Shown: positions 6,807 to 63,280, counted from the stretch's first letter. The stretch: 64,000 nt of DNA from Candidatus Kuenenbacteria bacterium (GCA_013202715.1 JABMRF010000007.1:72566-136565); one strand, 5' to 3'. The notes: generated by a model not told the origin, from the letters alone. Program-made: numbers and translations.

Positions 6807-6855
6807 AAAAAAATCCCCCGTCTCGAGTTGATCGAGAGGCGGGGGTGTTTTTGTT
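6807..6855. terminator. bidirectional intrinsic terminator
   Basis: cccccgtctcga-loop-tcgagaggcggggg flanked by A and T tracts between convergent genes. Confidence 0.75.
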
Positions 6856-7335
6856 TTAGCGCATGAATGGATTTCTGCCGGGGCACATTCTCTCAGTGAG
6901 AATTTCATCAGCCATCTCCCTAAGTTCAAGAGAGTCGGCCTTGAATCGAATGAGTTTCAGTGTCTCGGTGTCTTTATTTACTAATTTTCGTGCTAACATC
7001 TTCGCCTCAATCGTAGAGCGAATCTCAGGACCGCCATCTTTCCAGAGCAGGAACTGCTTGATTCGGAGCGCATCGATAACCTCGTCAGAATTCATCTTCG
7101 TTTCCAAGTCAGCCTTGAGATGATCCAGTTTTCTCCATGCGTTTGGCATGGCATTGTCAAGCGCTCTTCGCGCAGGGTGCTTGTGACGGAGAATCTTCCA
7201 AAGGTTGTAAAGCTCCATTGGAGTATGTTCTTTTGATTCAACAACTTCGAGTGGCTTTGCAGCCATCACAACCTCGATTTGGAAATCGGTGAAATCGCCT
7301 TTAGCTTTTAATCTTTCTTTTGTGGTAAGTATCAT
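6856..7335 (-). CDS. orphan hypothetical protein (cassette A)
   Basis: ORF preceded by AGGAGG (7340-7345) and its own promoter. Confidence 0.7.
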   Translation of the reverse strand: MILTTKERLKAKGDFTDFQIEVVMAAKPLEVVESKEHTPMELYNLWKILRHKHPARRALDNAMPNAWRKLDHLKADLETKMNSDEVIDALRIKQFLLWKDGGPEIRSTIEAKMLARKLVNKDTETLKLIRFKADSLELREMADEILTERMCPGRNPFMR

Positions 7336-7382
7336 TCTTCCTCCTTTTGTGAACGATTTACAATGAATCACTGCAATGCTGT

Positions 7383-7459
7383 ATCTTAGCAGAGCCTAAT
7401 ATTTTTGTCAAGAGTTCGTTACAGATATTCCTTGACAAGCGTTTTGATTATGCTAAAAT
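7383..7459. promoter_or_regulatory. divergent sigma70 promoters for cassettes A and B
   Basis: Minus: TTGACA(7406-11)-17-TAAGAT(7383-88); plus: TTGACA(7432-37)-16-TAAAAT(7454-59); both with TGn extended -10. Confidence 0.75.
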
Positions 7460-7509
7460 TATATTAATTTAGTTTGTCGATATCTAAAGATTCAACAAAG
7501 GAGGATGTC

Positions 7510-8109
7510 ATGAAAAGATTGGTTTTAATCGGATTGGCAACATTGACAGGACTTGTTCTTTTGGAAATGTTTGTTTTTGGTCCTGTTAATGAATGTTATG
7601 GTGGAGAAAGTGATACAAAGGGAGAAGGTTTTAAAATTGTTGAATTAATCGATTGCTCCGGCGATAAGTTTAGCCCTGATGATGGCGATTCGTTTTACTG
7701 CGTGATAAATGATAAAAAGGTTTTTGTCCGTGTCTTGGGAATTGATACTCCGGAGACAATGCATGAAGAGCATGGAATTTGCGAAAATCAAAAGCTGGGA
7801 CCTGAGGCAACTAAGTTTGCCAATAATATTTTGATGAATGCAAAAAACATTACACTTGTTCACAAAGTCGGTGATGTCGGATCTTACGGCAGACCATTGG
7901 TTCACGTCCTGGTTGACGGTAAATTGTTTGCGCCGATGCTGGTTAAAGCCGGCCTGGCTTATTCAACATTGGAACACTATGGCGATAACGGATTTTCCGG
8001 TTACGCGGCTGAGATTAATCACGTTTGGGCGAACATGACACCTCCTGAATTTGAAAATCCTCATAAGTTTCGGAAAAAGATGCGAGAAAAGTGTCCGCAA
8101 CCGGAATAA
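7510..8109 (+). CDS. secreted/membrane-anchored thermonuclease (SNase family) (cassette B)
   Basis: N-terminal hydrophobic segment; DGDS, VRVLGIDTPE, YGRPL, LVKAGLA motifs; AAGGAGG SD. Confidence 0.88.
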   Translation: MKRLVLIGLATLTGLVLLEMFVFGPVNECYGGESDTKGEGFKIVELIDCSGDKFSPDDGDSFYCVINDKKVFVRVLGIDTPETMHEEHGICENQKLGPEATKFANNILMNAKNITLVHKVGDVGSYGRPLVHVLVDGKLFAPMLVKAGLAYSTLEHYGDNGFSGYAAEINHVWANMTPPEFENPHKFRKKMREKCPQPE

Positions 8110-8231
8110 ATTAGTTTTCCCTGTATGTTACACTACATCCAGGGATTTTATTTTATCATTTTGCGCATTGACAAGCTTTTTGGGGCGTGCTATTATCTCT
8201 CAAGTGTCACGGTTCTTTTTACGGAGGCAAA

Positions 8232-8672
8232 ATGTCACATAATTGTTCCGCTGTGATTATCACTTGTATGGATTTTCGGACTCAGCCTGCACTGCATAGG
8301 TTTATGAAAGAAAATGGCCTCATTGGTGATGCTGATGTACTATCATTTCCTGGTGGACCACAGCTTTTGGCCAATGATTTTAACAGAAACAGCAAATTTG
8401 CGTCCGAGATGGCGCTCCTGTCAGTTGGACTTCACAGTGTCAGGACGGTCTACTTGATTGCTCATGATGATTGTATGGCCTATGGCGGATCAGATGCATT
8501 CAAATCCAGAGCAGTTGAAAGAGAAGCATACATGACGGATCTCGTCGACGCTGCGGCTGAGATCAGGAGTTTAGCACCGAAACTTAATCTTGAGATTGTT
8601 TACAAGATTATTGTGATGGACGGCGATGGCTGGGTGGTGATCAATTTTACAGAGGGTGATCTCAATCCCTAA
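8232..8672 (+). CDS. beta-carbonic anhydrase-like protein (cassette C)
   Basis: CMDFR and HDDC motifs; promoter TTGACA(8168)-17-TATTAT; GGAGG at 8223; terminator 8679-8717. Confidence 0.8.
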   Translation: MSHNCSAVIITCMDFRTQPALHRFMKENGLIGDADVLSFPGGPQLLANDFNRNSKFASEMALLSVGLHSVRTVYLIAHDDCMAYGGSDAFKSRAVEREAYMTDLVDAAAEIRSLAPKLNLEIVYKIIVMDGDGWVVINFTEGDLNP

Positions 8673-8823
8673 GAAAGTAACTCTAGGTGGACAAATCCAC
8701 TTGGAGTTTTTTATTTTATAAAATAGTGTTATAATATGTATATTAAGAATATAAAGAGGTCTTCATAAGTCTAAATAATGCTTCGAATATACTTCTTTCG
8801 CCCTCTTTCGCCTTATTAATTTT

Positions 8824-9321: not shown

Positions 9322-9416
9322 GTAAGAAGTTAAAAGTTTATAAAGTTCATAAAGTTGGAAAGTTTGAAAGAGAAAATTCAATTGCAACATTCTGAAAACG
9401 ACAATGGAGGTGGATA

Positions 9417-9638
9417 ATGAAAGTAAAAACAAAAGTGCTTGTGGGGAATTCATTTTACGCGCTGGCAATTTTATTGCTATTTGCTTTTAGTGCCGTTGAG
9501 GCCTTAGGGGGGCTAACTGCTTTAATTGGAGTCGCAGCATTGGCATTATGTTTTGGAACTATCGCCATAGTTGTTAAGTCCAATGTGCAGTGGAGTTTAT
9601 ACAAGTCGTTAACATTTGAAAATGGTAATGGCGGATAA
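9417..9638 (+). CDS. small 2-TM orphan protein (cassette D)
   Basis: GGAGGTG SD, two hydrophobic segments, downstream terminator 9652-9685. Confidence 0.6.
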   Translation: MKVKTKVLVGNSFYALAILLLFAFSAVEALGGLTALIGVAALALCFGTIAIVVKSNVQWSLYKSLTFENGNGG

Positions 9639-9732
9639 TTAATTTGCATTTAATTCCGTGTCGAACGTGGCACGGAATTTTTATTATCCCTTCCTTGCAA
9701 AATAGTGATATCTTGTGCTAAAATGAGAGCAT

Positions 9733-12690: not shown

Positions 12691-12736
12691 AAAAGAAACA
12701 CGCCCGCAGTGAAGCAGGCGTGAAGTTGATTTTTCT

Positions 12737-13363
12737 CTACAGGTTGAGCTGCAACCGGAAAAGGAACATGTTCGTTTCCTTGTCCGCTGGCGAAATGTCG
12801 TAACCCAGCCAGAACATTGCCGAACCGGCGGAAATTCCTCCTCCGAATGCGGCTTCGAACCAGTCATCTTCACTGAGGAAATGTTCTGTGAAGAGGCCGA
12901 CGCCCCATTTCTCGAAATTGTACATGAGGGTCGAGAGGATGTAGTACTGCCTGAACGTGTGCTCTCCATCTCCCTCTGTCGAGAGAGGAAAGTAAACGTC
13001 GCCTTCCAGGAAGAACAGCAGTTCATCAAGGCCGAGTGTCTGTTCCATCCAGACTGAGGCCAGCGCGCTCGTGCCACCGTCAGGTGACATGAATGTGCCA
13101 CCGAGTAGCCAGAGAGTTGTCTTCGGTAGACTCAGCTTCGGCCCTACGTAGGTGAAAAGCATCGGAGTCATGGTTCCGAAGTCCATCAGCGCCGTTCCGT
13201 GTACGTAACAGCTGAGATGTGCACTTTTGCTGAGCTCCGCATCGCCGATGTCCCTGCCGACGGCGATCATCAGTTGCCCGGTGGTCGTGTGCTCCTCGGC
13301 AAGAACTGACGACGAGAGACAGATCAGACAAAGAACAAACGTGAACAGTTGCAGTTTTCGCAT
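12737..13363 (-). CDS. signal-peptide protein, probable outer-membrane beta-barrel (cassette E)
   Basis: Signal peptide, about 10 amphipathic strands, ends MFLFRLQLNL; GC-rich; promoter TTGACA(13446-51)-17-TATACT, AGGAGG SD. Confidence 0.6.
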   Translation of the reverse strand: MRKLQLFTFVLCLICLSSSVLAEEHTTTGQLMIAVGRDIGDAELSKSAHLSCYVHGTALMDFGTMTPMLFTYVGPKLSLPKTTLWLLGGTFMSPDGGTSALASVWMEQTLGLDELLFFLEGDVYFPLSTEGDGEHTFRQYYILSTLMYNFEKWGVGLFTEHFLSEDDWFEAAFGGGISAGSAMFWLGYDISPADKETNMFLFRLQLNL

Positions 13364-13475
13364 TTTTTCCTCCTAAGGTTGCGAAATCATCCATCGATCA
13401 AATCTTAATCACTTAATACAAGAGTATAGCATACCGTTATATAACTGTCAATAGGTAAGCTAAAATTAGATAAAT

Positions 13476-13793: not shown

Positions 13794-13807
13794 TGATAGA
13801 ATGGAAT

Positions 13808-20471: not shown

Positions 20472-20713
20472 ATGTAAAATGCAAAAATCAAAACCACATA
20501 TAAAATAATTTATAAAAAAATATTTTTAATTTTGGTCTTTGATTGTGGTTTTACCCCGCGCACCGGGGTCCCGCCACGCGGGACGTTTTTCATTTTGCAT
20601 TTTCCCTTTGTGAATAAGTTGACATTCTCCCAAAAATATACTATGTTCTTAATATATAGAAATAAATAAATAAGATCAGGCCTTTTTGGCCTGACTTTAT
20701 ATTGAATCAAATT

Positions 20714-21178
20714 ATGTCAAACCAAATTATTTTGACTGAAGAAGGAAAGTTAAAGTTAGAAGCGGAAGTGAAAGAGCTAAAAGAAGTTCGGCGCCCGGAT
20801 ATCATTTCAAAAATTGAACAAGCCAAAGAACTAGGAGATCTTTCTGAAAATGCAGAGTATCATGATGCCAAGGATCAGCAAGGCCTTATGGAAGCTCGAA
20901 TTTCTGAAATTGAAGGGATTCTGAAAAAGGCAGTGATTTCTCAGGTAAGTGATTCAAAAACTGAGATCGGACTTGGCTGCAAATTTATCGTTGAAAATGC
21001 TGATGGAGACAGAAGGGAATTGACCTTGGTTGGATTTAATGAAGCTGAACCACTGGTTGGAAAAATTTCCAATGAATCGCCAATGGGAGTCGCTTTTCAA
21101 GACAAAAAACCGGGAGAGACAGTTGAGGTGGAAGCGCCAAAGGGGATTATTACTTACAAGGTTATTGAGATACTTTAG
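20714..21178 (+). CDS. greA: transcription elongation factor GreA
   Basis: GDLSENAEY, ISNESPMG. Confidence 0.97.
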   Translation: MSNQIILTEEGKLKLEAEVKELKEVRRPDIISKIEQAKELGDLSENAEYHDAKDQQGLMEARISEIEGILKKAVISQVSDSKTEIGLGCKFIVENADGDRRELTLVGFNEAEPLVGKISNESPMGVAFQDKKPGETVEVEAPKGIITYKVIEIL

Positions 21179-21315
21179 TTATAAGATAAAAAAGCAAAGC
21201 AATTGCGCTTGTGCTTTTTTGTTTGGATTGATAATTGACTTGAAAATGTAGTTATGATAAGGTAAAATGATTATGAAATGAGTTCTGTTCTTTCTAAACC
21301 GCCTGGAGGTGTACA

Positions 21316-21783
21316 GTGGGCTATTTCCTGATTACGTTTCTCATGTTTCTTGTGATGTTGTTTTTTTCAAGCAGTGCTCAACAGGATAGAGCCGGCTGGG
21401 CAGGGATGTACGTTGTTCTTGGTACAGCCTTTTCTGCAATGGGATTTTGGTTTTCAGCTTCGCTTGAATATTCCTGGTTTGGTCCGCCAATGGGAATAAA
21501 TGAATTTTGGGTAATTTTTAGCTTAACAATGCTTTGGTATGCAGGATCACTTTTGACCTGGTATGGTTCCTGGAGAATATTTTTTCCGTCAGGAAAGTTC
21601 ATTTTTTCTCTTGATACTTTGAATGTTCCTGTTGCAGAAGGGAGAATTCATTCCCAAATGCAATATTTTGAATTTCGTGACAGAATGAATCAAGCTCACA
21701 GACAATTCAAAGATGCTGAACGTAGAGGAGAAATTCAATCAGGACCGACTATATCGGAACGATCTGATGATGAACATAGATAG
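21316..21783 (+). CDS. orphan membrane protein (cassette F gene 1)
   Basis: GGAGGT SD before GTG, 3 TM; promoter TTGACT(21235)-17-TAAGGT. Confidence 0.65.
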   Translation: MGYFLITFLMFLVMLFFSSSAQQDRAGWAGMYVVLGTAFSAMGFWFSASLEYSWFGPPMGINEFWVIFSLTMLWYAGSLLTWYGSWRIFFPSGKFIFSLDTLNVPVAEGRIHSQMQYFEFRDRMNQAHRQFKDAERRGEIQSGPTISERSDDEHR

Positions 21784-21818
21784 AGTAACATTTTTCTCAG
21801 TTTGAACGGAGGTACAAC

Positions 21819-22139
21819 ATGTTTATTTATTCCATTGTAACTTTCTGCCTGATTTTTCTATTGCTTCATCTTGACAAAGGTGAAAAGTGGGCATTTGCAA
21901 TTCAGTTTGGCTCAATGTTCTCCAGTGCGATTGTGTTTCTGTATATGGTTGAGTTCGGCTACTTTTTCCCAAGTTTAGCCGAGTCGGGATATATGCTTAG
22001 GCACGCTGATTATTTCACATCCCTCAAGGTTTGCGGTTTCATGTTTTCTCTGCTGAATTGGATTCTGCTTTTCAAGTTGACTAGGGGTGGATCAAATAAT
22101 AGAGCGAAGCCAGTAGGTCTAATGCTACCAACTGTCTAG
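21819..22139 (+). CDS. orphan membrane protein (cassette F gene 2)
   Basis: GGAGGT SD, 3 TM. Confidence 0.6.
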   Translation: MFIYSIVTFCLIFLLLHLDKGEKWAFAIQFGSMFSSAIVFLYMVEFGYFFPSLAESGYMLRHADYFTSLKVCGFMFSLLNWILLFKLTRGGSNNRAKPVGLMLPTV

Positions 22140-22151
22140 AAGGGGGGCTGG

Positions 22152-22526
22152 ATGAAATTTGGTATCCAGGACAGGCAAGATGGGGGATCAGACTGCATTT
22201 CACTTGGCGGTGGTATACCAGTGCCAATACCAACCAGGTTTACAGACGAGATAACTGTTGAAACTGCAGCTGAAGTTTGGCAAAAAATTCTCAAGGCTGC
22301 TGAAGATTTCGGTGAAATTTCAGGTTCTTTCACTGAAGAACAAATTGCTCAGGTTCTTGGCTTTTTGAATCTGAAATTGAGCGATTTCGTTCGGCAGTTT
22401 GGTGAACATTTCGAAATCTTCTATGCTATTCATGATGATTATGACCCGGGTGGAATTTTCTACCGTATTTGTCATGATGTAAATGCCGTATTGAAGAGAA
22501 TTGGTCGAGATGACCTAAGAGATTGA
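22152..22526 (+). CDS. orphan hypothetical protein (cassette F gene 3)
   Basis: G-rich SD; terminator cccgcc-aa-gcgggg-T at 22536-22560. Confidence 0.6.
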   Translation: MKFGIQDRQDGGSDCISLGGGIPVPIPTRFTDEITVETAAEVWQKILKAAEDFGEISGSFTEEQIAQVLGFLNLKLSDFVRQFGEHFEIFYAIHDDYDPGGIFYRICHDVNAVLKRIGRDDLRD

Positions 22527-22595
22527 GAAAAACAATCCCGCCAAGCGGGGTTTTTTCTTTGCAAAATTTTGTTATTTAAGTTATAATCTTTTTAT

Positions 22596-24755: not shown

Positions 24756-24826
24756 AATATTTAAATATTATAAAAGAGCACCATGTGCTCTTTTGTGATT
24801 GTTGTATCAATGTGTGTTTAAAGATT

Positions 24827-25069
24827 CTAGCGATTTAGCCAAGAAGTTTGAACAGAGCTCAAAAAGCTAGGGGTTGCACCTTGTCCGACGCAAACTGCTA
24901 GAACTTCTTCTCTTGATTTGCAATGTGCGAGAGATCCTCTGATCTCTCGATGAAGTGAATTTACTTGATGTGCACTACGTCCCTGAAAATGTCCTACGGC
25001 TTCATTTCTGCTTAGAATTTTTTGAGTGACAAAAGTTTTGAATTGTCTTAGCGCAGCTCTTTCTCTCAT
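24827..25069 (-). CDS. small orphan protein (cassette G)
   Basis: AAGGAGG SD; promoter TTGACA(25137-42)-17-TAAACT; terminator 24772-24794. Confidence 0.6.
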   Translation of the reverse strand: MRERAALRQFKTFVTQKILSRNEAVGHFQGRSAHQVNSLHREIRGSLAHCKSREEVLAVCVGQGATPSFLSSVQTSWLNR

Positions 25070-25208
25070 GTTGGGCCTCCTTATGGCTAGTGAAAAGAAC
25101 AATTGAATAATTAAGTTTATCACAAGTAGAATAATATGTCAATATCGATTAAAAAAATAGGTCCGGGGCGAGGCCCGGACCATGGAAGGAAGAAGTGTTT
25201 ATTGGTGT

Positions 25209-26675
25209 TTAATTTTCTGACTGAAACATCGAGATTTGGTTGTTTGCTATGATTGAAGCAAAGAATGCTTCAGAATCAAACATTTTCATGAGCATGGCAA
25301 AACGATACTCTTCAAGTTCAGCATCGTTTGAGTCATTAGTCCGTTCGTACCGGCTAGTCAATTCTCTGCTGGCTGTGGCTGACAATTGATATAAGTCCGG
25401 TTTAGCTATTTTTGTGTTTATCCTGAAGTATTTATTCCACAAAACTCGAAAATGAAATCTTCCAGGAGCAGAAAAACCATCACTGAAGCGTTTGTCTTGG
25501 CTGTAGAAAAGGCCCAGCTTGGTCTCTTCAAAATCAATGCAGGAAAGAAAAAGGTCTTTGAACTGAAATGAGAAAGTTTTTACAAAACTTGAGAAAGCAG
25601 AATGAACATCGTTCTCAATACCGTAGCTGTTAATAATGTAAGTAAATGAAACTCGTTGGCGGCCATCAAGTGGTGGTGGATGTACACTGCTTTTTTCAGG
25701 ATTAATTTCACATTTCCGATGAAGAAAGATCCAACTACTGTAAATCCGCAAATCAAGATTTGTCTCGGTAGTAAAGCGAAATTCCAGAGCATGACTTTGG
25801 TTGTTGTAAAGAATGTCATAAGAAGTTGTCTTTGGAAAATCTGGCATAAACATCAAAACGTGCCATGGTGTTTTATCTAGGTATTTGTACGTCGGGTTGT
25901 AATATTTAAACCATTGATCAAGAGAAGAAGGACCCTTGCTTGTTCTTAATTCAGATATACATTGGTTTTCAACTAGATAATTCACAAAGCGGGTTTGATC
26001 AATAAATTGCAGAATGTTCTTGAAGTGTATGGTTTCATCGCTGATTCCATATCCAGCAAAAGAAACAAGTTCTGGTTCTTCTGTACTTTCTTGTTCTGGA
26101 TTGAAGCTGTCTGTTTTGCAAGTACAAGGTTGTATCTCATGCATTTGCCATAGGACGTTTATTCTAAAACCGTTCTTGTGTTGGCAGGTCTTACAGTTGG
26201 GTGGAACAAAGGCAATCTCAATGTCTGTTTTGGTCCAATCAATATATTGATACCAGTCGATAAAAGTATCTTCATCAATCTTGTTTGGATTTATTTCGAA
26301 TTCGCTTGATCCTAATGAATTGACTCGACTAAAAGTGACTGTGTAGCTTTCTATGTATTCATAGGGAGTGTTCATTGAATAAGCAGTTTTGATTGAGCCA
26401 TTTTTGATTTCAAAACTTACATCATCTTGCAGTACGAGTTTAGCTTGATAAAGTACTACATTGCCCAGACTATCGTCTTCGAATTGTAAAATGACCGTGT
26501 TGTTTTCTAGCTCTGCACTGAGTTGCAGTTTGTTGCCATATGGGGTCGGGACGGCTAGATAGGCTGACCAGAATGCTGAGCACTGGTCATTGCTTTGAAT
26601 TAGTGATTCAGCAAGAGTGACTCTAGAAAAACCAAGAACCAACAAGAGAGCCAGAACAGTACGTAGCTTCTTCAT
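25209..26675 (-). CDS. secreted orphan protein with internal domain duplication (cassette H)
   Basis: Signal peptide; AGGAGG SD; promoter TTGACA(26743-48)-16-TACACT; terminator 25150-25181. Confidence 0.75.
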   Translation of the reverse strand: MKKLRTVLALLLVLGFSRVTLAESLIQSNDQCSAFWSAYLAVPTPYGNKLQLSAELENNTVILQFEDDSLGNVVLYQAKLVLQDDVSFEIKNGSIKTAYSMNTPYEYIESYTVTFSRVNSLGSSEFEINPNKIDEDTFIDWYQYIDWTKTDIEIAFVPPNCKTCQHKNGFRINVLWQMHEIQPCTCKTDSFNPEQESTEEPELVSFAGYGISDETIHFKNILQFIDQTRFVNYLVENQCISELRTSKGPSSLDQWFKYYNPTYKYLDKTPWHVLMFMPDFPKTTSYDILYNNQSHALEFRFTTETNLDLRIYSSWIFLHRKCEINPEKSSVHPPPLDGRQRVSFTYIINSYGIENDVHSAFSSFVKTFSFQFKDLFLSCIDFEETKLGLFYSQDKRFSDGFSAPGRFHFRVLWNKYFRINTKIAKPDLYQLSATASRELTSRYERTNDSNDAELEEYRFAMLMKMFDSEAFFASIIANNQISMFQSEN

Positions 26676-26987
26676 TTCCCGCCTCCTGGGATTGAATTGT
26701 CAAGGACCAAAGTATATTGAAGTGTAGCATTATAAGTTGAATTGTCAACCCTTTGCTAAATTTGATAGATTTGGGTATAATATAAGTATGAATTGTGACG
26801 TATGAATTATGAATTAAGTAAATATAATTGGAACATCTCCCCTCGGGGGATTTATAAGAAAGTTAATTAGAAGTTAATTAAAGGTAATTTAAGTTACATA
26901 AAAGAAAGTTAATTAAAAAAAGGATTAAGGCCGAATATTTGGTTGTCTTGTTACACCTTGTTTCGCCCTTTTTCGCCTTATAAAAAT

Positions 26988-28256: not shown

Positions 28257-28389
28257 AAACTGGAAACTTGGGTTGAGACTAATATAAAAAAGTAAGCAGG
28301 TTTTGTGAAAGCAGGGCCTGCTTTTTTATTGCATTGACATTGTCAACTTTATTTGCTATATTAATATATTAACAATTAAACAGCGGGAG

Positions 28390-28749
28390 ATGGTTATGAT
28401 AATGGGAATTGTAGCTACAGTAATGCTCTCAATCCTAAGTCTGTGGATTGCACTGCGATTTGACTTGGAAAAAGTACCGGTTCAAACCTGGTCGGATCTA
28501 TTTGTGATTTTTTCTGCTGTGTTGTTTACTCCGTACATGTTCTTTGAATGGTGCTTGTTTTCAAAGGAAGAAGACAAGGAATGGCATAAAAATCATTTGC
28601 AATATCTTCTGTTGGTTGTTATTAATTTGTTACTTTTGGGTATTATCGGCAGATATGTATTTGATGCCCTCAATCTGTACATCGTTCCAATGGTTTGCTT
28701 TATTGTGTATGCATCGGGATTTGCTTACAAAAGAATGAGGCAATCATGA
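28390..28749 (+). CDS. orphan 4-TM membrane protein (cassette I gene 1)
   Basis: Promoter TTGACA(28334)-17-TATATT; GGGAG SD (start may be 28396). Confidence 0.65.
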   Translation: MVMIMGIVATVMLSILSLWIALRFDLEKVPVQTWSDLFVIFSAVLFTPYMFFEWCLFSKEEDKEWHKNHLQYLLLVVINLLLLGIIGRYVFDALNLYIVPMVCFIVYASGFAYKRMRQS

Positions 28750-28922: not shown

Positions 28923-28978
28923 AGTAGCTGGTTGTTTTTTTTGCGAAAATTTCATTTTTCAGGTAAAATGAACTGTAT

Positions 28979-31024: not shown

Positions 31025-31123
31025 ATTTTAGAAGGTCTTGACGGTCAAGTTAGTTTTTTCTAATCTCGTAAATCCAATAAAAAAGAGTCCAGTTCATTGA
31101 ACCGGATTCTTTTTGAGGTTTAT

Positions 31124-46838: not shown

Positions 46839-46913
46839 ATTGACAAATTGATCATTCTTTACTAAAGTATAGTAAATGATTGGTTCTTTGTAAACCCCAA
46901 CTTAGGAGAAAAC

Positions 46914-47324
46914 ATGAGACTTTTGCATCACATTCGTGAAGTGCTGGCGTTGGAAAGTGATACCTTTTTACTTATCGATCAGAGTCAATACGAAGAGTGC
47001 TCTGTATATCCGTTGTTTGGGATAGTTAACCGAGCCGTATGTTCTGGTTGTACTTCAATAAGTCAAGTTGAAGCTACACTTAATTTGCGAGATTCTAGAT
47101 TGAGTGGAACAGCTTGTAGTTTGTCAGGAGAAATTGTAGATGTTAATGTCGTAAGTGGTGTTTTCGGTTGGTATCGTATTTATGTCTTAACAGCGGCTGA
47201 AGCTATGCACGTTTTTATGCTTCTAACAAAAAAGGATACTACAACTTATTTTTCGAATCCGACCGTGTTTAGACAAAGAATGAAAATGAAAGAGCCAATG
47301 GCTCCTCTCCGTCACGTAACATAG
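46914..47324 (+). CDS. orphan hypothetical protein (cassette O)
   Basis: TTGACA(46840)-17-TAAAGT, boxA-like TGGTTCTTTGTAAA, AGGAG SD, terminator 47338-47366. Confidence 0.65.
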   Translation: MRLLHHIREVLALESDTFLLIDQSQYEECSVYPLFGIVNRAVCSGCTSISQVEATLNLRDSRLSGTACSLSGEIVDVNVVSGVFGWYRIYVLTAAEAMHVFMLLTKKDTTTYFSNPTVFRQRMKMKEPMAPLRHVT

Positions 47325-47388
47325 AATCAAAGTTAATAAAATAAGCCTAATCTAAGGCTTATTTTTACGTTATATGAGGTTTATTCAT

Positions 47389-50408: not shown

Positions 50409-50462
50409 TTGACAAATTTTTGAAACTATGCTATAATGCTGTATCAATTGGTTCTTTGAAAA
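50409..50462 (+). promoter_or_regulatory. consensus sigma70 promoter plus boxA-like motif
   Basis: TTGACA(50409)-17-TATAAT(50432) with TG extension; TGGTTCTTTGAAAA at 50449-50462. Confidence 0.8.
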
Positions 50463-50571
50463 ATCGCTTGAGTACAACAGAAAGACCTTATTTACAATTA
50501 TCTATTGTATGTAGCGTCTTTTTGTTGTGTCGAGAGTCAACAATTTTTCAAAACCTTAATTGGAGGAAAGC

Positions 50572-52281
50572 ATGAAGAACGGAGAAAAGACGCTGAATGG
50601 AATCGTTGGTCTGTACAAGGAGTTTGGTCCCGACCTTCCGGTCGTGACCATCCAGGGAGTGCAGGTTGTCCGTCTGCCCAGCACCGTGACGGTGCTGGCG
50701 GACATGAAGGACGAGACGGTCCTCCAGCCCCTCAACCAGGCGAGGATTTTCCACGCCACTGACAGGCAGGGACAGTTTTTCCTGCTCCTCACCGAGGATG
50801 GCGCTGCCAAGATGGCATCGCTCATCGCAGAGGACCGGAACACCCGGGGTGAGGTTCTGACCGTGGCCGACGGCTACACCAAGTTCGTCACCTACACGGT
50901 GGCCATGGCAGCGGCAGCCGCCGCAGCCAAAGCCAAGAAGGCGGCAGCGGAAGCCAAGTCCCAGGCCAAGGCAGCAGCCACAGCCAAGCGGCTCGAGTCT
51001 TACAAGCTCATGGACCTGATCCGGTTCGGGCAGAGGGACTGCGTCCTCCTGCCCTCGGACGAGGTGGCGGAGATCCCGCTGCTAAAGGTCAAGCCCCTCC
51101 TGGGGACCATGGCTTCGTTCGTGAGGACCAAGCTGGAGGCAGTGGCCGAGCAGTACGAGGCCGACTACTCAACAGCTATCGCCGAGGCGCAGAAGGACAA
51201 GCCCTTCGCGCACGGCGGAGAGCTGGTCGACTGGGAGCGGGAGTTCCGTGCCCAGTGGGCTGACAAGAATGGCAAGTCCGCCCCGACGATGTGGGGTATG
51301 ACGGTTCTTCTCAGAAACTTCGACGATTACGGCGAGTTCGCCATGATCATCCGGTCGGATGACAAGGAGGCCATTCTGGGTCTCACCGGTTCGAGGTTGA
51401 TCTCTATGGGCGAGCCCATGCACTGGAGGCTCCGGAAGAAGTACTTCTTCGATCCGCGCGCAAAGGCGGCAGAAGAGGCGCGGAAGCTGGAGGCCAAGCT
51501 GGCTCGGGAAGCCAGGGCCAAGGAATCAGCGGAAAAGCTGCAGACCAAGGTCGAGGCCATGAAGGCCACCGGCAAGAACTTCCACACGTGTCAGGGCGAT
51601 ACCGTCTGGACACCTGTGGAATCCTTCGTGCGGATGTCCATGGACGATCTCGTCGTCTGCCCCGTCCTGGGGGAGATGAGCGAGGATGACGTCCTGGCCT
51701 GTATGGACGAGAAGTTCGTCGATGCGTACGAGTCCGCTCTGGACCAGGCGCAGAAGGCCGGCCCTCTCGGCGTGAAGGACTACTTCTCGTTCGAGGGGAA
51801 GTTCCGGAACGAGTATGCGAAGTCCAGCGGTGGTGCCACTCCCGGACTGGCGGACTTCGTCGTGGTGACGCGATACTTCCGTCGGGAAGGCGTGTGTTGC
51901 GCGGTCGTTCACAGGGACGATCTCGCGGCATTCAAGGCCATCGCGGGCAAGGGGACGAACCCCAACACCCGGGAGACCTACGAAGTTCCTCTTCGGGATC
52001 ACAGTGATCCCTTCTGGTGGATGCTCCGAAAGGAGCACTTCTTCGATCCCCTTTCCCAGCGAAAGGATCAGGAGAGGCAGGCAGAAGAAGAGGTCGTCGC
52101 GGTCCGGAAAGAACAGACGTTCGACCAGATGGGTGATCTCATCGGCGCTGAGCGACTGAAGGAGATGCGCGCATCGTTGGCTTCGGCCGACGAGGTCATC
52201 GATGATCACAAGTCTGCCGGCCGGCAGAAGTGGGACCGCCGGAAGAACGGTGGCGGCAAGAACCGCGGCAAGCGCGGCTAG
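50572..52281 (+). CDS. GC-rich orphan protein with two internal repeats (cassette P)
   Basis: GGAGG SD; strong GC3 bias; two ~150-aa repeats ending W.LRK..FFDP; basic C-terminal tail; terminator 52317-52349. Confidence 0.8.
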   Translation: MKNGEKTLNGIVGLYKEFGPDLPVVTIQGVQVVRLPSTVTVLADMKDETVLQPLNQARIFHATDRQGQFFLLLTEDGAAKMASLIAEDRNTRGEVLTVADGYTKFVTYTVAMAAAAAAAKAKKAAAEAKSQAKAAATAKRLESYKLMDLIRFGQRDCVLLPSDEVAEIPLLKVKPLLGTMASFVRTKLEAVAEQYEADYSTAIAEAQKDKPFAHGGELVDWEREFRAQWADKNGKSAPTMWGMTVLLRNFDDYGEFAMIIRSDDKEAILGLTGSRLISMGEPMHWRLRKKYFFDPRAKAAEEARKLEAKLAREARAKESAEKLQTKVEAMKATGKNFHTCQGDTVWTPVESFVRMSMDDLVVCPVLGEMSEDDVLACMDEKFVDAYESALDQAQKAGPLGVKDYFSFEGKFRNEYAKSSGGATPGLADFVVVTRYFRREGVCCAVVHRDDLAAFKAIAGKGTNPNTRETYEVPLRDHSDPFWWMLRKEHFFDPLSQRKDQERQAEEEVVAVRKEQTFDQMGDLIGAERLKEMRASLASADEVIDDHKSAGRQKWDRRKNGGGKNRGKRG

Positions 52282-52360
52282 CTACCCAAACCTACCTAGG
52301 GACGTCCGTCCCAAAAGTCCCCCCCGCACTCGGGGGGGACATTTTTTTTGTCCGGATTTA

Positions 52361-52469: not shown

Positions 52470-52611
52470 ACTTTGTGTTTTTTGCGATTTTGCCTGTTTC
52501 GCGCTTTTGCGTTTATAGCTTGACAACTTAGCAATTTATACCTATACTAAGAAAAAGGACATGTTCGTTAAATTTGAGCCCCATGTTGCTAATTTGACTA
52601 GAGGAGGCTTG

Positions 52612-53286
52612 ATGATAAGGGTAAGTAAATCAAACTTGGTTTCGCCAATAAGCGATGCGTTTTGGCCGGTGTTTTTCTCAAGTGAATTGATTGTTCGTTT
52701 CGTTGCTCAGGCAGTTTGTTTTGCCTTGTGCGATAAAAAGAAAAAACCACAATTGATTTTTGTTTATCCATATGAAGGGTCTTCGAGTCGACCGACCGCT
52801 GGTCAGCTTTTGCAAGTTTTTCAGAACTGCAAAGATCCTTGGCGAGAGTTTAGACCATTTGCTCTGCCGGTAAAAATGTCTGACCTTCTCGATCTGACCG
52901 GCGTGAATATTGAATGTGTCCAGGATGATTCGCGAGAAGTGGTTATTCTGTATGCGAACAAACAACCGAAGGATGAAATTGATTTCTCTGATTCGATGCT
53001 TGTTAGCGGGTATGCAAAGGCCGATCTTATTGATATGAGATCGTGGCCAGAAAACCCGGAAGAATATACGGTTCATTCTGCGGGATTTGAACCTGATGGA
53101 TGGAACTCTGAACATTACAGGCTTTTCGTAGAAAACTACGTTGTTCAAGGGGATCATATTTGCAGGATTCTCGCCTTAGCCAGAATTGGCTGTGAGGTTG
53201 AACTCTCCCCCACTGTGCGTATCAACGCCAGGTCCAAGATCATGATTAACCCTCCAATCAAAGACGAACATCGAATTGTTCACTAG
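52612..53286 (+). CDS. orphan hypothetical protein (cassette Q)
   Basis: TTGACA(52520)-17-TATACT; GAGGAGG SD; terminator 53297-53320. Confidence 0.65.
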   Translation: MIRVSKSNLVSPISDAFWPVFFSSELIVRFVAQAVCFALCDKKKKPQLIFVYPYEGSSSRPTAGQLLQVFQNCKDPWREFRPFALPVKMSDLLDLTGVNIECVQDDSREVVILYANKQPKDEIDFSDSMLVSGYAKADLIDMRSWPENPEEYTVHSAGFEPDGWNSEHYRLFVENYVVQGDHICRILALARIGCEVELSPTVRINARSKIMINPPIKDEHRIVH

Positions 53287-53336
53287 GAAATAAAAAGTCC
53301 CCCATCACTGGGGGCATTTTTCTTTTAAATATATAT

Positions 53337-54533: not shown

Positions 54534-54545
54534 ATAGAAAAATAA

Positions 54546-56172: not shown

Positions 56173-56263
56173 TTTGTAGGTAAAATGTAAAAGTTAAAAG
56201 TATGGACCCTGGAATGGGTTTTTAAAAATACTTGACAAATTTCTAATTTCTTATATACTGGGG

Positions 56264-56290
56264 TTGGCACTCTCTACTTCCGACTGCCAA
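56264..56290 (+). promoter_or_regulatory. CIRCE operator (HrcA) downstream of a sigma70 promoter
   Basis: TTGGCACTC-N9-GACTGCCAA versus consensus TTAGCACTC-N9-GAGTGCTAA; promoter TTGACA(56232)...TATACT directly upstream; precedes clpB. Confidence 0.85.
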
Positions 56291-56332
56291 TATTACTATC
56301 AACTTTTACATAATAACTTTTACCTAATTTCT

Positions 56333-58954
56333 ATGGATATCAGAAAATTCACTACAAATTCACAACAAGCTCTTCAATCAGCGCAAGCGCTTGCTTTTGA
56401 GTACAAGCATTCACAAATTGATACAATTCATTTGCTTTGTGCACTACTTGAACAAGATGAAAGTATTGTTTTGACCGTATTAAAAAAACTGGAACTTCCT
56501 GTCGAGCAAATGATTCAGCAGGTCAAATCTATTTTGCATAAATTTCCAAAGGGCCGAACTCCTAGCGCTGCTGGCGGTCAAGTTGCCGTGACTCCGCCAA
56601 TGAATTATGTTTTGGTTAATTCGGAAAAAGAATCCAAGAAGCTGGGCGATGAATTTGTAAGTACAGAACATTTATTGCTGTCACTTTTGAAAGTTGACTC
56701 CCCTGCTTCTGAACTTCTGAAAATGTTTAATGTTGATTATGATACAGTTTTGAAAATTCTCTCTGATGTGCGCGGTGATGAAAAAGTTGACTCCCCTGAC
56801 CCAGAAAACAAAAGGGATGTTTTGGATAAGTTTACCATGAACTTGACTCAGGAAGCGCGGGAAGAAAAATTAGATCCAATTATCGGGCGAGACGACGAAG
56901 TTCGACGAATTTTACAAGTACTTTCTCGAAGAACAAAAAACAATCCAGTTTTAATTGGAGAACCTGGCGTTGGAAAAACTGCAATCGCCGAAGGATTGGC
57001 TCAGCGTATTGTTTCCGGCGATGTTCCGGAAAATCTTAAGAACAAGGAAGTTTTAAGTTTGGATATTGGCTCTCTTGTGGCCGGATCAAAATTTCGTGGT
57101 GAATTTGAAGAAAGAATGAAGGCTGTCTTGAAAGAAATTCAAAAGAACAAAGACAAATACATCATATTTATAGATGAATTGCATACAATTGTTGGAGCAG
57201 GCTCAATCGAAGGCTCACTGGACGCTTCAAATATGCTCAAGCCAGCGCTTGCTCGTGGAAATTTGAGATGTGTTGGCGCTACAACATTAAAAGAATATCA
57301 AAAATATATCGAAAAAGACGCCGCACTGGAGCGAAGATTTCAGCCCGTGATGGTATTGGAGCCTGATTTGGATGATACAATTGCAATCCTTCGTGGAATC
57401 AAGGAAAAATATGAAGTCCACCATGGTGTGCGCATTACAGATGATGCAGTTGTGGCAGCAGCAAAACTTTCTCAGAAATATATTACCGACCGATTTTTGC
57501 CTGACAAAGCTATTGACCTTGTTGACGAAGCAACATCAGCTCTTCGAATTGAGCTGAACAGTATGCCGATCGAGCTGGATCAATTGAAACGTAAGATTAT
57601 GAAATTGGAAATTGAAAAGCAAGCCATTGCCAGAGAAAAAACTGACACAGCAAAGGCAAAGCTGAGTGGCATCGACAAAGAATTAGAGGAACACAAGGAA
57701 AAAGCAAATCAACTCGAAATTCATTGGAAAAAGGAAAAAGAATTGATTGAGCAAATTCAATCTGCAAAAAAAGATATTGATAAATTAAAACAAGAAGCGG
57801 AAATTTTGGAAAGAAAAGCCGAATATGACCGAGTCGCGGAAATCCGTTACGGAACAATCCCTGAACTTGAGAAAAAGATCAAAAGTCTTCAAGCTCGTTT
57901 TCGAAAAGTGCAGTCAGGTCCTGGTGGTCGGAAAATTTTAAAAGAAGAAGTAACTGAAGAAGATATTGCTAGCGTAGTCTCAATGTGGACAGGCATTCCT
58001 GTTACAAAGATGCTACAAAGCGAAATAGAAAAATTGGCGCATGCGGAAGACGAGCTTGCCACTCGAGTAATTGGTCAGAAAAAATCAATTGCCTCGGTTG
58101 CCAATGCACTTCGTCGTTCCCGGGCTGGATTGTCAGAAGAAAATCGACCAATTGGTTCATTCCTCTTCCTCGGTCCGACCGGAGTTGGTAAGACTGAGCT
58201 GGCAAAATCGCTTGCTGAGTTTATGTTCAATAGTGAAGAAGCAATTATTCGCGTCGATATGTCTGAATACATGGAAAAGCATTCAGTTTCAAAGCTGATT
58301 GGATCTCCTCCAGGATACATTGGTCACGATGAAGGTGGGCAGTTAACTGAACGCGTTCGTCGGCGTCCTTATTCAGTAATCTTGTTCGATGAAATCGAAA
58401 AAGCTCATCCAGAAGTTTTCAATTCTCTATTGCAAATCTTGGACGACGGCAGGCTGACTGATTCAAAGGGCCGAACCGTTAATTTCAAAAATACAATTAT
58501 CATCATGACATCAAATATCGGCTCAGATACAATTCTGGATGCGATTAATAAATCTGATCTTGGCTTTGGAAATCAGGAAGCAAGTCAAAAAGAATCAATT
58601 GACAAAAAAATCCTTGGTCGCCTAAAAGAGCATTTCCGTCCTGAGTTTCTAAATCGAATTGATGAGATTATGATTTTTGATGCTTTGAATAAAAAAGAAC
58701 TGCGAAAAATTGTTGACCTTCAGCTGGAAATTGTTGGTAAACGTTTGGAAGAAAAAGAAATTCAGATCAAATTTAGCTCAGAAGTTAAAGATATGTTGGC
58801 GGAAAAGGGCTATGATCCACAGTTTGGAGCTCGGCCACTAAAACGATTGATTCAAACGATGATTCTCGATGAGCTTGCTTTGCAGATTATCGAAGGAAAG
58901 ACTAAGAGTAAAGTTAGCGTTGAGCTTTCGAAAGGAAAAGTAGTCTTTAGGTAA
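56333..58954 (+). CDS. clpB: ATP-dependent chaperone ClpB
   Basis: Two AAA+ modules ([16 protein letters not shown]), long middle coiled coil with AEIRYG. Confidence 0.95.
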
Positions 58955-60436: not shown

Positions 60437-60586
60437 ATATAACGCGAATGTCACTAATTTTAACGCGAATATCGCGAATCGCGAATGTTGCGAATAATAA
60501 TATTCGTGTTATTCGCGATTTGCCGTTCGGCCACGAGCTCACGGCCGAGTGGCGTCATTCGCATATGTTCATATTCGTGTAAATCT

Positions 60587-61375
60587 ATGCTCACCTTTGC
60601 GGCCATTGTGCCTCATCCACCGGTCTTGATTCCAAGTATCGGTAAAGAAAATATAGATAAATTAAAAAAAACCATTAGTGCTTTGGATATTCTTGAGGAA
60701 GAATTAAATCAAGCGAATCCTGATACTATAATTGTGATTTCTCCGCATGGCGAAATTAATTTTGAAGCATTTACAGTTAATACTAATGAAAAATATACAG
60801 CAAGATTTGAAAATTTTGGCGATTTTACAACCAAGCTGGAATTTAAATCAGATCTGGGATTTATAAATCAGCTAAAAGCGACAAATGAAACAAAATTACC
60901 GGTCCAACTGATTTCACAAGAAAATCTTGATCATGGTGTGTCGGTCCCCCTTTATTACTTGACTCGAAAAAATCAAGATCGCAGAATTGTGCCGATCAAT
61001 TATAGTTTTTTGAATTTTAATAAACATTTAGAGTTTGGCGAATTGATAAAAGAAGCCATTTTTTCTTCAGACAAAAGAGTTGCAATTATTGCTTCCGGAG
61101 ATCTATCACACAAGTTGAGTTTGCGAGCGCCAGCAGGATTTTCTCCACACGCAAAAGAGTTCGACAAAAAGCTGATTCAGGTTTTGAAAAAGAAAAGTGT
61201 GCAGGGAATTTTGGATATGGATCCGGCCTTTATCGAAGAGGCTGGCGAATGCGGTCTACGCTCATTCCTGATCCTACTTGGAGCGATTAAAAACATGAAA
61301 TATGAATTTGAAGTTTTGAGCTACGAAGCACCGTTTGGGGTTGGCTATTTAGTCGGAGAGTTCAAGTTTGCGTAA
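60587..61375 (+). CDS. amrB: AmmeMemoRadiSam system protein B (MEMO/LigB-like)
   Basis: PHPP, SPH, DHG, ASGDLSH, ECG, YEAPFGVGY. Confidence 0.88.
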   Translation: MLTFAAIVPHPPVLIPSIGKENIDKLKKTISALDILEEELNQANPDTIIVISPHGEINFEAFTVNTNEKYTARFENFGDFTTKLEFKSDLGFINQLKATNETKLPVQLISQENLDHGVSVPLYYLTRKNQDRRIVPINYSFLNFNKHLEFGELIKEAIFSSDKRVAIIASGDLSHKLSLRAPAGFSPHAKEFDKKLIQVLKKKSVQGILDMDPAFIEEAGECGLRSFLILLGAIKNMKYEFEVLSYEAPFGVGYLVGEFKFA

Positions 61376-61658
61376 TGCGAATATAGATAAATGCGAATGA
61401 CGCGAATCGCGAATGATGCGAATAAAGAATAAAAGTACAAATATCGTCTTTTGGGGCGATTTTGTGATTCTAGGGCTTGTTTTTAGGTAAACTTAGTCAA
61501 CCCTTTGACAAATCAAGAAAAATCATGTATAATGCTACTTAAACAAGTTCCTTTCAAAGTATCGAAAACTGTGTGTTTCAGTGGACCCCTCCGGGTCTGT
61601 CTGTGGTTAGGGTTTGCATGTGCAAGCCCATCTGTTTGTTAACCGTATGGAGGTAGAG

Positions 61659-63182
61659 ATGACAGTAGATCGAGGAAGTATCGTTTCAGCTGAAGTGCTC
61701 AGAATGCTCATGTCCTCACCGGGCGAAGATGAAGAACTCAGCGGTGAGATTGTCAGCATTGGAGCCAAAGACTTTGCGTTCATTGGGAATGTGAAGGACT
61801 CACGGGGCCGGCCGGTTGATACCGGCGCTGGCGATGTGTTTCTTCACCAGGAGGAACTCCTTGGTGGAAAAATGGAAGTTGGGACGGTCCTGAAGTTCAG
61901 GGTTGTTCCCGATGAGAGGAGACTCGGTAAACTGCGAGCGCTTCAGGCGCACTCAGTCGATCTGGCTCTGGTGCCGGTGAAAAAGGAAGTTGTGTTTCCG
62001 GTGTCAGTCGTTACCGGCGCACAGTCGTTCTACCACGTGCGTGCCAAGAAGATTCTGCCGGAAATCGTTGACCAGGCTGACAACAACAAGCCGTTTGACG
62101 GTGTCTTCCGACCGACTTCCCAGGCAGATGCGATCAAGATTGCGAACCGAGATGTCCTGGCCGACGTGATCAACGTTTGGCTGAAGGCGAGCTTCGCGAT
62201 GTTCGAGAGCTTCGGTGTGAACTTCGATCTGCGCCAGCCAGTGACGGATGAAGAGCGGGACATGATCGAAAAGTACGCCCAGTCGTTTGGCAATGGTGGC
62301 ATGGATGCTGCAGCTCGGAAGCTCAAGCAGCAGTTCGAGACGTTCTTGAACACCAAGGATGTCTTCAACTACCTGTACAATTCAAATCGCCTCCTGCCCC
62401 AGAGCGTACTCAGTGTTGACTACCTGCCTGACATGATGATGGCCGCGCCGGTCTGGTTCGCACGAGGGAAAGAGGAATTCCCCAACAAACAGGATAGACA
62501 CGATCCAATGCCGGACGAGTTTGTTCAGTACATGTGCGGACTGGGCAAAACCCAGCGCATGGCAAACCTGATGCAGCTTTTCAATCGGCGCACACGGCCG
62601 TTTGACATGTATGAGGGAGACGTGATTCCTCCTCATATCTGGGAGACGATCCAGGCCTGCTCAAACAGAGACAACCTGTTGTCAAAGTTCGATTACCTGG
62701 TGATTGCCACTCCGTATCACAACATTGCCAGCAAGGAATGGGCTGATCCCAACTGGCAGGGCATGATTGATCCTTACCTGCTTGCATTCTCAAAGGATGT
62801 GCCTGAATTTTTCTTCGTGCTTGGTCGTTGGAGTGACACGGGGCTTCTGCCGCTAGTTAGCGAGATGACGGCCGATACCGTGAATTTCACGAGAGAGCAC
62901 CTTGAGGGAATTGAGAACTTTTCTCAGCCCTACTGGCACATTGAGGCTGGTGACAAAAAGGATAGTGATCCAGAGGATGATGAAGGGTCTCGGATTGCGG
63001 CTGATGGTACACATTATAATCAGAGTTTAAAAGACGGTGTTCCTGCTCCATATCTCAAGGATGGTTCATTGCCACAATTTGCCAGGGAATTGATCGAGCG
63101 TTTCGAAAAGGGTGACCTTTTCCCCTGGCTGACGGATGACACTTACACCGGAGAGCCGGATGAGACGACACCTGAAGGTTAA
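61659..63182 (+). CDS. cold-shock-domain fusion protein, otherwise orphan (cassette R)
   Basis: RNP1-like KDFAFI and RNP2-like DVFLH; TTGACA(61505)-17-TATAAT; GGAGGT SD; terminator 63195-63226. Confidence 0.75.
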   Translation: MTVDRGSIVSAEVLRMLMSSPGEDEELSGEIVSIGAKDFAFIGNVKDSRGRPVDTGAGDVFLHQEELLGGKMEVGTVLKFRVVPDERRLGKLRALQAHSVDLALVPVKKEVVFPVSVVTGAQSFYHVRAKKILPEIVDQADNNKPFDGVFRPTSQADAIKIANRDVLADVINVWLKASFAMFESFGVNFDLRQPVTDEERDMIEKYAQSFGNGGMDAAARKLKQQFETFLNTKDVFNYLYNSNRLLPQSVLSVDYLPDMMMAAPVWFARGKEEFPNKQDRHDPMPDEFVQYMCGLGKTQRMANLMQLFNRRTRPFDMYEGDVIPPHIWETIQACSNRDNLLSKFDYLVIATPYHNIASKEWADPNWQGMIDPYLLAFSKDVPEFFFVLGRWSDTGLLPLVSEMTADTVNFTREHLEGIENFSQPYWHIEAGDKKDSDPEDDEGSRIAADGTHYNQSLKDGVPAPYLKDGSLPQFARELIERFEKGDLFPWLTDDTYTGEPDETTPEG

Positions 63183-63280
63183 GTTGTAAAAACAGAGCCC
63201 CCCCGCATCGCGGGGGGGCCTTTTTCTTCCAAAAAATTGGACTGGATTTTTGTGTAATTTTTGTTATAATACAAGCACCT

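Follow-up and report, generated by a model that had tools for sequence, protein, structure and literature searches.

An insulated, Shine-Dalgarno-led gene class in a Candidatus Kuenenbacteria genome and the cell that may read it

We analyzed a 64,000-nucleotide stretch of a Candidatus Kuenenbacteria genome (the window), in which an earlier note, made from the sequence alone, had described about 18 self-contained expression cassettes, here called units, scattered between housekeeping genes. The chromosome carries two gene classes: core genes that lack a Shine-Dalgarno (SD) sequence, and units with a promoter, a GGAG-type SD and an intrinsic terminator, signals that are maintained by selection. 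Our best reading, held tentatively and with somewhat less than even confidence, is that a host cell, which would receive the units in the form of RNA or DNA, translates them. Contig C33 of the genome (G000; 1.30 Mb, 60 contigs) contains the window. The small genome, the 16S rRNA of relatives and a PrgI-TrsD-VirB4 locus, present beside comF, recG and radA, fit the published description of the Patescibacteria class ABY1 (PMC12102498). The organism, a tiny uncultured bacterium, probably lives on other bacteria; we infer both its host-bound lifestyle and the identity of the host proposed below.

Genes were called with a simple open reading frame (ORF) script, the first version of which served for the tests of SD-led against other genes. 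A second version, favoring starts with an SD and a promoter, gave the sets of 185 (G000) and 105 units, which are thus pre-selected for GGAG and an exact promoter. An exact promoter is TTGACA-N16/17-TANNNT, and the reverse-strand positions listed earlier for the window denote the left end of the hexamer. The same-genus comparison genome, G003, was covered whole but for 2.6 kb.

Two gene classes in one chromosome

Exact promoters occurred 19 times in the window, against 1.9 ± 1.5 times in 100 shuffles (shuffle maximum 8), and complete combinations of promoter, GGAG and start 15 times, against 0.11 in shuffles (maximum 1). All 15 of the −35 sites listed earlier were exact on re-scanning, and the TTGACT promoter at 21235 was present; of the two units credited with weaker promoters, the one at 34911 has a doubtful promoter and the one at 9417 no recognizable promoter. 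The four matches outside units belong to greA (20619) and clpB (56232) or are intragenic (5342, 17320). The 18 units hold 21 ORFs, and their neighbors are housekeeping genes syntenic with G003. GGAG stands 4-10 nt before the first ORF of all 18 units, but the SD attributed to the units does not extend to two downstream ORFs without GGAG (22152 has GGGGGG, and 28746 has GAGG overlapping the preceding stop). As had been proposed, each unit has a terminator of its own, a hairpin with a T-run found 3′ of 17 units by scan and of the eighteenth (34911) by eye.

The same signals separate the two classes genome-wide. An exact promoter lies within 150 nt upstream of 150 of the 307 SD-led genes of G000 and 65 of the 1042 others (odds ratio 14), and of 83/198 and 37/1044 genes, respectively, in G003 (odds ratio 20). 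GGAG peaks 5-8 nt upstream of starts, T occupies position −1 in 749/1042 SD-less and 49/307 SD-led genes, and a terminator lies behind 114/136 units, against 124/402 of those core genes whose 3′ gap is free. In both genomes TTA, AAA and TpA are avoided in units, and third-position GC content (GC3) is ~0.10-0.14 above that of the core; TTA use falls from 0.25 in the core to 0.09 in units in one genome and from 0.20 to 0.05 in the other, and the core genes that are most conserved are free of this codon and GC3 shift. The odds ratios, start context, terminators and codon use bear out the view of the units as a distinct expression class. About 291 G000 genes, a fifth of the total, are unit-like (186 of 1131 kb of coding DNA). 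A strict form of the pattern was found in 181 of 401 genomes of the phylum (2 matches in the reversed control) and in 31 of 31 nearest relatives (0 matches in the reversed control), and G000 tops the phylum sample with 55 matches.

Cargo is mostly orphan, as noted before: Pfam matches were obtained for 4 of the 21 window ORFs (a staphylococcal nuclease, a putative carbonic anhydrase and two PilM), for 13 of 77 SD-led G000 genes in eight stretches, and for 74 of 200 SD-led G003 genes, a count that leaves out one 2298-aa gene and includes some core genes mis-started at an internal GGAG. A phage origin was rejected, as only 7 of 94 cargo proteins matched PHROG. Motifs resembling boxA are enriched in unit leaders (22 versus 0.6 in shuffled leaders); the rRNA leaders of relatives hold similar motifs, so boxA is ambiguous as a host-type signal. 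Rho was not found in any of five genomes (G000-G004), and NusB is present. Leading-strand bias was dropped as a discriminator (0.64 and 0.60 for units, 0.68 and 0.67 for first core genes; p 0.5 and 0.2), as was the notion of a mostly leaderless core, −10 boxes at 6-8 nt being only weakly in excess (~5% versus 2%).

The units differ in age. Core genes stand in the same order in G003, with ~70% identity, and 149 of the 185 units have no G003 match. The synteny comparison proposed earlier did reveal empty G003 sites (among them the greA/HD and lysS/serS junctions); several other junctions hold unrelated units (serS/alr, ftsQ/pilM, cvpA/uvrD), and at four loci of the window a counterpart with 29-44% identity is retained. 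Of 35 units shared with G003, 27 are syntenic; vertical conservation at the same loci, named beforehand as an argument against a separate class, is thus found in part, and such old residents refute recent capture, not a separate class. Among old syntenic pairs below 55% identity the SD is kept in 15/21, although the leaders upstream are at chance identity (27% ungapped), which indicates that the signals are maintained and not left over. Foreignness alone brings no SD: an acquired polysaccharide island, most of which G003 does not share, comprises 37 genes, and 35 of them are SD-less. A UbiA-family unit (G000 C52:45032-46792, G003 C2:253278-255038) shows 91% identity across the two genomes, far above the core median, and its leader is conserved too; its likeness may reflect either recent exchange between lineages or strong constraint.

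Start signals, PilM and a predicted barrel

The earlier statement that the units use signals foreign to core genes holds for the SD and fails for the promoter. The promoter is native: rRNA operons of relatives start from TTGACA-17-TATACT/TATAAT, and greA, clpB and other core genes use it. What core genes lack is the SD. Only 14 of 392 conserved gene pairs were called SD-led in both genomes, a number that includes units and mis-starts. The core is not wholly devoid of SDs, as had been claimed, since tuf, rpsA and rpsU bear true SDs of another form: tuf has GGAG followed by A or T in 25/30 loci and never GGAGG (L178-L207), rpsA has AGAAAGGAGT (GGAGT type) in 8/14 family loci (L148-L175) and pairs better with the family tail, and rpsU has AGAAAGG in all three genomes examined (G000 C28:26811, L267, L268). 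The rpsA and rpsU SDs pair with the extreme 16S tail, and autoregulation of the three genes, by analogy with Bacteroidia, may be considered. SD spacing was rejected as a discriminator, because rpsU (~7) resembles the units while tuf (~9) and rpsA (9-12) do not.

The suggested inspection of the 16S 3′ end for CCUCC gave a different tail in the relatives of this family, ACUCC in 8/8 (L031-L039), whereas other Patescibacteria have CCUCC in 39/42 tails (80 genomes, 38 of them yielding no tail). A reader with an ACUCC tail should favor GGAGU. However, promoter-bearing units of 16 family genomes have GGAGG 505 times and GGAGT 35 times, with no shift from the 240:25 of 10 other genomes of the order. 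In the units of two genomes, GGAG is continued by G in 68% and 85% of cases and by T in 9% and 2%, even though genome-wide no base follows GGAG less often than G. The native form AGAAAGGAG occurs in 0/185 and 0/105 units, and a canonical CCUCC tail pairs better with 160/185 and 103/105 of them. There is, then, an SD/anti-SD mismatch within the family, and this is what is new here: with an ACUCC family tail, units keep GGAGG while the organism's own rpsA uses GGAGT. Loss of the anti-SD in part of the Parcubacteria is described in the literature consulted (PMC9297842, PMC12641261, PMC6851277). A TGA-recoded genome was sought among 80 unit-bearing genomes, and none of 78 gyrA matches had an internal TGA.

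The resemblance of the PilM cargo to Myxococcota was borne out: the nearest named relatives of the window PilM are from Myxococcales (46-48% identity). Donor-type pilM loci overlap pilN in 16/16 cases and have neither exact promoter nor terminator; all six Myxococcales-type PilM found in Patescibacteria have a promoter, an SD and a downstream hairpin with T-run. Native PilM form their own clade and are SD-less (22/22). The lone donor-type PilM, which bear signals that are new to them, thus show directly that the signals are kept up and are not remnants; the number of separate acquisitions is uncertain in a quick tree with long branches. Units 12 and 13 are nearly identical in promoter, leader and terminator, and their proteins are 43% identical.

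The β-barrel reported among the cargo (unit 5) gained structural look-alikes from prediction and no other support. Its Atlas model (predicted template-modeling score 0.73) aligns with outer-membrane barrels of the DUF2490 family at template-modeling scores of 0.75-0.78, and the protein has a signal peptide and an alternating, amphipathic strand pattern. A single-sequence fold was discarded (predicted local distance difference test score 34), and a word-index homologue search found nothing. The family comprises 38 members, including one named member from Patescibacteria and two with weak Pfam barrel matches; it occurs in 17 of 301 genomes of the class, SD-led in 15 of the 17 and with a near-exact promoter in nine. 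A second unit, in G003, has a predicted similarity to porin-like barrels. Outer-membrane barrels are assembled from the periplasm by the β-barrel assembly machinery. Omp85/BamA was found in 0/5 and 0/35 genomes, including all 17 barrel carriers, with a control positive in all seven diderms. The genomes thus carry predicted barrel-like cargo without BamA, and described cells of the Candidate Phyla Radiation are monoderm (PMC8871954).

Contents of the window and wider cargo

The units and control genes are listed in Table 1. The putative carbonic anhydrase at 6376-6786 is a native, SD-less copy beside the SD-led one of unit 3. The reported cold-shock-domain fusion (unit 18) was not confirmed by Pfam at E ≤ 0.5, a cold-shock-like N-terminus being visible by eye only. 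A word-index search with unit 16 returned only itself. An SD-less gene of the window at 37670-46312 encodes a surface protein of 2880 aa, whose repeats are of the lamin-tail, Ig-like and carboxypeptidase-regulatory types and which is kept in G003.

Table 1. Units, control genes and a recombinase in the window
Feature	Coordinates	Strand	Signals and contents	G003
Unit 1	6807..7411	-	Promoter −35 at 7411-7406, SD, orphan ORF 6856-7335 (159 aa), terminator 6815-6845 (family at 3 sites)	No match
Unit 2	7432..8153	+	Staphylococcal-nuclease-family ORF 7510-8109, hydrophobic N-terminus; back-to-back with unit 1	No match
Unit 3	8168..8716	+	SD-led second putative carbonic anhydrase copy, 8232-8672	SD-led counterpart, same place
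Unit 4	9400..9687	+	SD, 73-aa membrane ORF 9417-9638, terminator; no promoter recognized	Two unrelated SD units at junction
Unit 5	12691..13451	-	Signal-peptide protein 12737-13363 (208 aa, GC3 0.67), predicted resemblance to DUF2490-like outer-membrane β-barrels	
Unit 6	21235..22560	+	TTGACT promoter, orphan ORFs 21316-21783, 21819-22139 and 22152-22526, terminator	Site empty
Unit 7	24767..25142	-	Orphan ORF 24827-25069 (80 aa)	lysS/serS site empty
Unit 8	25152..26748	-	boxA-like leader, signal-peptide orphan ORF 25209-26675 (488 aa)	
Unit 9	28334..28940	+	Small membrane ORFs 28396-28749 and 28746-28922	Unrelated SD unit at serS/alr junction
Unit 10	31076..31712	-	Signal-peptide orphan ORF 31124-31639 (171 aa)	
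Unit 11	31730..32275	+	Orphan ORF 31796-32221 (141 aa); back-to-back with unit 10	
Unit 12	32288..33470	+	Lone Myxococcales-type PilM, 32364-33422	
Unit 13	33478..34845	+	Second lone PilM, 33554-34795	Same locus, 39% identity
Unit 14	34847..35525	+	Doubtful promoter, SD, orphan ORF 34911-35390, terminator by eye near 35495-35520	
Unit 15	46840..47371	+	boxA-like leader, orphan ORF 46914-47324, two-way terminator	
Unit 16	50409..52352	+	Long leader, orphan ORF 50572-52281 (569 aa, GC3 0.81), terminator family at ~33 sites	Same locus, 29% identity, GC3 0.85
Unit 17	52520..53323	+	ORF 52612-53286 (224 aa), no family	Same locus, 34% identity, SD kept
Unit 18	61505..63226	+	Long leader, ORF 61659-63182 (507 aa, GC3 0.60), terminator of the unit 16 family	Site empty
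Control greA	20619..21178	+	Core gene, exact TTGACA promoter, no SD	
Control clpB	56232..58954	+	Core gene, exact TTGACA promoter, no SD	
XerC/D-like tyrosine recombinase	36183..37133	+	Core gene, no tie to units	Syntenic

Among the other cargo of both genomes are a PilB that bears a cyclic di-GMP-binding motif, response regulators standing alone, a SpoT-like HD hydrolase, a sigma factor and an NAD salvage set, a range that is consistent with host manipulation and does not require it. The hydrolase is a stand-alone SD unit (G000 C38:40590-41243, L073:6974-7624) conserved at 74% in G003, and an extra RpoD-like sigma factor lies in a promoter, SD and terminator unit (G000 C55:9468-10493) with a near-identical leader in G004 (L141). 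A full NAD salvage set of PncA, PncB, NadD, NadE and NadK, with a kinase and a PP2C phosphatase, occupies G000 C25:2920-16113 (L125); its genes are nearly all SD-led, and the set is absent from G003. It resembles the NAD reconstitution pathways of phages. SD-led cargo of G003 also comprises long double-zinc-ribbon arrays and MopE-type metal-binding repeats (L058:13995-16070, L075:3682-6666, L111:3264-5438). A tRNA-Ile with a UAU anticodon lies at G000 C43:8781-8856.

Parts of the frames recur. A hairpin resembling repetitive extragenic palindromes, fused to the SD and 15-20 nt before the start, precedes ~17 unrelated ORFs (unit leaders on G000 C9, C10, C17, C23, C25, C27, C29, C31, C33, C38, C46, C52, C57 and C59) and also stands directly behind tRNA or tmRNA 3′ ends (C16, C21, C28, C45, C56 and C60); in G003 it is absent from unit leaders and occurs only behind tRNA-like ends. 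Weak matches to Y1 transposases were present in the data. A second hairpin precedes four ORFs, and a terminator family that includes those of units 16 and 18 recurs at ~33 sites. Most leaders have only the promoter consensus in common. At 17 window units no att-like or flanking repeats were found beyond chance, the tandem PilM frames excepted. The reported absence of att sites thus stood; the window does encode a recombinase, but this one is closest to XerC/XerD and belongs to the core genes in synteny with G003.

Which cell reads the units

Of the explanations offered earlier, the putative expression by the machinery of a host cell gained most support, from the anti-SD mismatch, the predicted barrel without BamA, the lone host-type PilM and the SD-less island. 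In the model that we propose, the organism's own genes start without an SD, in an A-rich context with T at −1, and few of them, rpsA, rpsU and tuf among these, make use of its anti-SD. A second set of roughly 200-290 genes would form a fast-turning, host-directed repertoire at tolerated core junctions. These genes are packed in insulated units of one to three genes. Each unit has a strong promoter of the sigma-70 type and a GGAGG SD with textbook spacing, its leader is often boxA-like, and an intrinsic terminator closes it; selection keeps these signals. Transcripts made by the parasite's own polymerase from rRNA-type promoters, or DNA, would pass to the host, perhaps through a type IV secretion system without relaxase. 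The unit mRNAs would be read there by ribosomes with the canonical CCUCC tail in a cell with an outer membrane, Myxococcales being the lead candidate host, and the products would remodel that cell as an outer-membrane channel, lone pilus components, nucleases and regulators.

Several points weigh against host translation. We infer translation in the host, transfer and its route; neither transfer nor expression was observed. The unit promoters are of the organism's own rRNA type. The G000 assembly contains no 16S gene of its own, and the genomes counted are kin and hence non-independent. The family tail can still pair with GGAG (mean −8.4 kcal/mol), so the organism's own ribosomes may be the readers, and the covariation of rpsA with the tail is one-sided, because rpsA lacks GGAGG in canonical-tail relatives too. 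A search of G000 with PF02534 gave no coupling protein of the VirD4 type, and most of the phylum lacks relaxases (PMC12102498). The barrel is known from predicted models; a terminal Phe is seen in only 8 of the 38 family members, and a sequence search of the PDB with the barrel profile returned no solved relative. Lipoprotein cargo was rejected as a discriminator, as Lgt and LspA occur in the genus and lipoboxes in core genes, and some cargo, such as the NAD salvage set and a uridine kinase, could serve the organism's own cell.

A second programme of the parasite's own cell, in which the units are expressed at home and many products exported as effectors or surface proteins, is a real possibility toward which we do not lean, although the corresponding earlier option of a separate regulon remains nearly as likely as that of host machinery, its promoters being native and GGAG pairing with the family tail. 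Expression might perhaps occur only on host contact, or through ribosomes with an uncovered anti-SD, as in Bacteroidia lacking bS21. The rRNA-like promoters and boxA-like leaders, NusB, the three to five sigma factors and the secretion system encoded, the SDs that the organism's own ribosomes use at rpsA, rpsU and tuf, and a unit GC3 that tracks the resident genome (0.45 versus 0.56) all agree with it. Against it stand a fifth SD base that is G and rarely T although the family tail would favor T, and units that never take the native form; a signal-peptide barrel without BamA would have no evident assembly route, and ordinary acquired genes are SD-less. Capture or shuffling, in which recombination loads ORFs into ready frames of promoter, leader and terminator so that the signals reflect the frame and not a foreign reader, is improbable as the main cause; units may have been assembled in this way whichever of the two preceding explanations is right. 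The recurring hairpins and terminators, the tandem PilM units with near-identical frames and the junctions with unrelated units in G003 speak for it. However, leaders mostly share only the promoter consensus, the leader hairpin is missing from G003 unit leaders, and G kept against the family tail stays unexplained. A dedicated capture system, as suggested earlier, found no support in att sites or an integrase, the window recombinase being a core Xer, though unrelated ORFs do have leader and terminator parts in common. Independent horizontal transfers with donor signals not yet decayed are largely refuted and very unlikely: most units lack a G003 match, unit GC3 is higher and variable, and PilM is clearly of outside origin, but donor-type pilM has no such promoter or terminator, syntenic pairs of 25-55% identity still have the signals, the polysaccharide island is SD-less, few cargo proteins match PHROG, and members of the barrel family are again found as units across many families of the class.

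Known systems match in part. Phage morons are single extra genes with their own promoter and terminator between conserved genes, carrying, for example, outer-membrane or pilus-interfering proteins. The units share this promoter and terminator around an inserted gene, but number hundreds, lie among housekeeping genes of a cellular chromosome with no prophage and few PHROG matches, and differ in SD from the start signal of resident genes. The PeSL cassettes of the T4-type phages RB49 and phi1 are strong sigma-70-like promoter and terminator modules around orphan ORFs, read by the host, whose shared parts can drive shuffling (PMC2839356). The units have similar modules, with shared parts reused in subsets; PeSL, however, is one conserved phage repeat, whereas most frames here share consensus motifs only and the shared leader hairpin is not in G003 unit leaders. 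Agrobacterium T-DNA carries recipient-type expression signals and moves by type IV secretion as one bordered plasmid block, with relaxase and coupling protein, into a plant. If the host reads the units, the likeness would lie in genes with the signals of the receiving cell, the unit SD fitting the canonical tail better than the family tail and the promoter fitting both; unlike T-DNA, units are dispersed, unbordered and chromosomal, in a genome without a PF02534 coupling protein. No T-DNA-type border repeats were found at window units, and relaxases, for which no dedicated search was made here, are mostly missing in the phylum (PMC12102498). The SD-blind ribosomes of Bacteroidia go with an SD-less core, an SD at rpsU pairing with the extreme 16S tail and, in Flavobacterium, one strong-SD gene (PMC13000453). 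In this type of translation bS21, bS18 and bS6 hold the anti-SD on the 30S platform. Core genes here are likewise SD-less with an SD at rpsU (and at rpsA and tuf), but about a fifth of genes are SD-led and mismatch the family tail. Integron cassettes are orphan-rich single ORFs, most of them without a promoter, that form arrays next to intI with attC sites as their bounds. The units are also orphan-rich, variable and often single-ORF, yet dispersed and self-promoted, with 3′ elements that are hairpin and T-run terminators, no flanking repeats beyond chance at 17 units and no integrase but the core Xer. The units are not an integron, a set of prophage morons or decaying transfers; by analogy, their way of working would be closest to that of T-DNA or of early phage genes, which one genome carries although they are written for another cell.

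In the open-licence literature searched, we found no description of this gene class or of gene-expression parasitism between bacteria. Promoter, GGAGG and terminator together make a simple sequence rule by which about one gene in five is assigned to a class of its own. We tentatively propose, with confidence a little short of the midpoint, that Patescibacteria may act as cellular phages, with a dispersed and fast-evolving payload of hundreds of genes for host ribosomes and the host envelope, delivered as mRNA or DNA into a host bacterium that makes the proteins. If this is true, it would constitute parasitism of gene expression from bacterium to bacterium, and the SD-led set of any such genome would be a list of host-takeover genes and a predictor of the host, Myxococcales in the present case. 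The finding touches on how Patescibacteria exploit their hosts, on the cargo of their essential relaxase-less type IV secretion system and on why they have so many orphan genes. Even if the units serve the parasite's own cell, the rule yields a list of candidate effectors and a testable prediction of the host.

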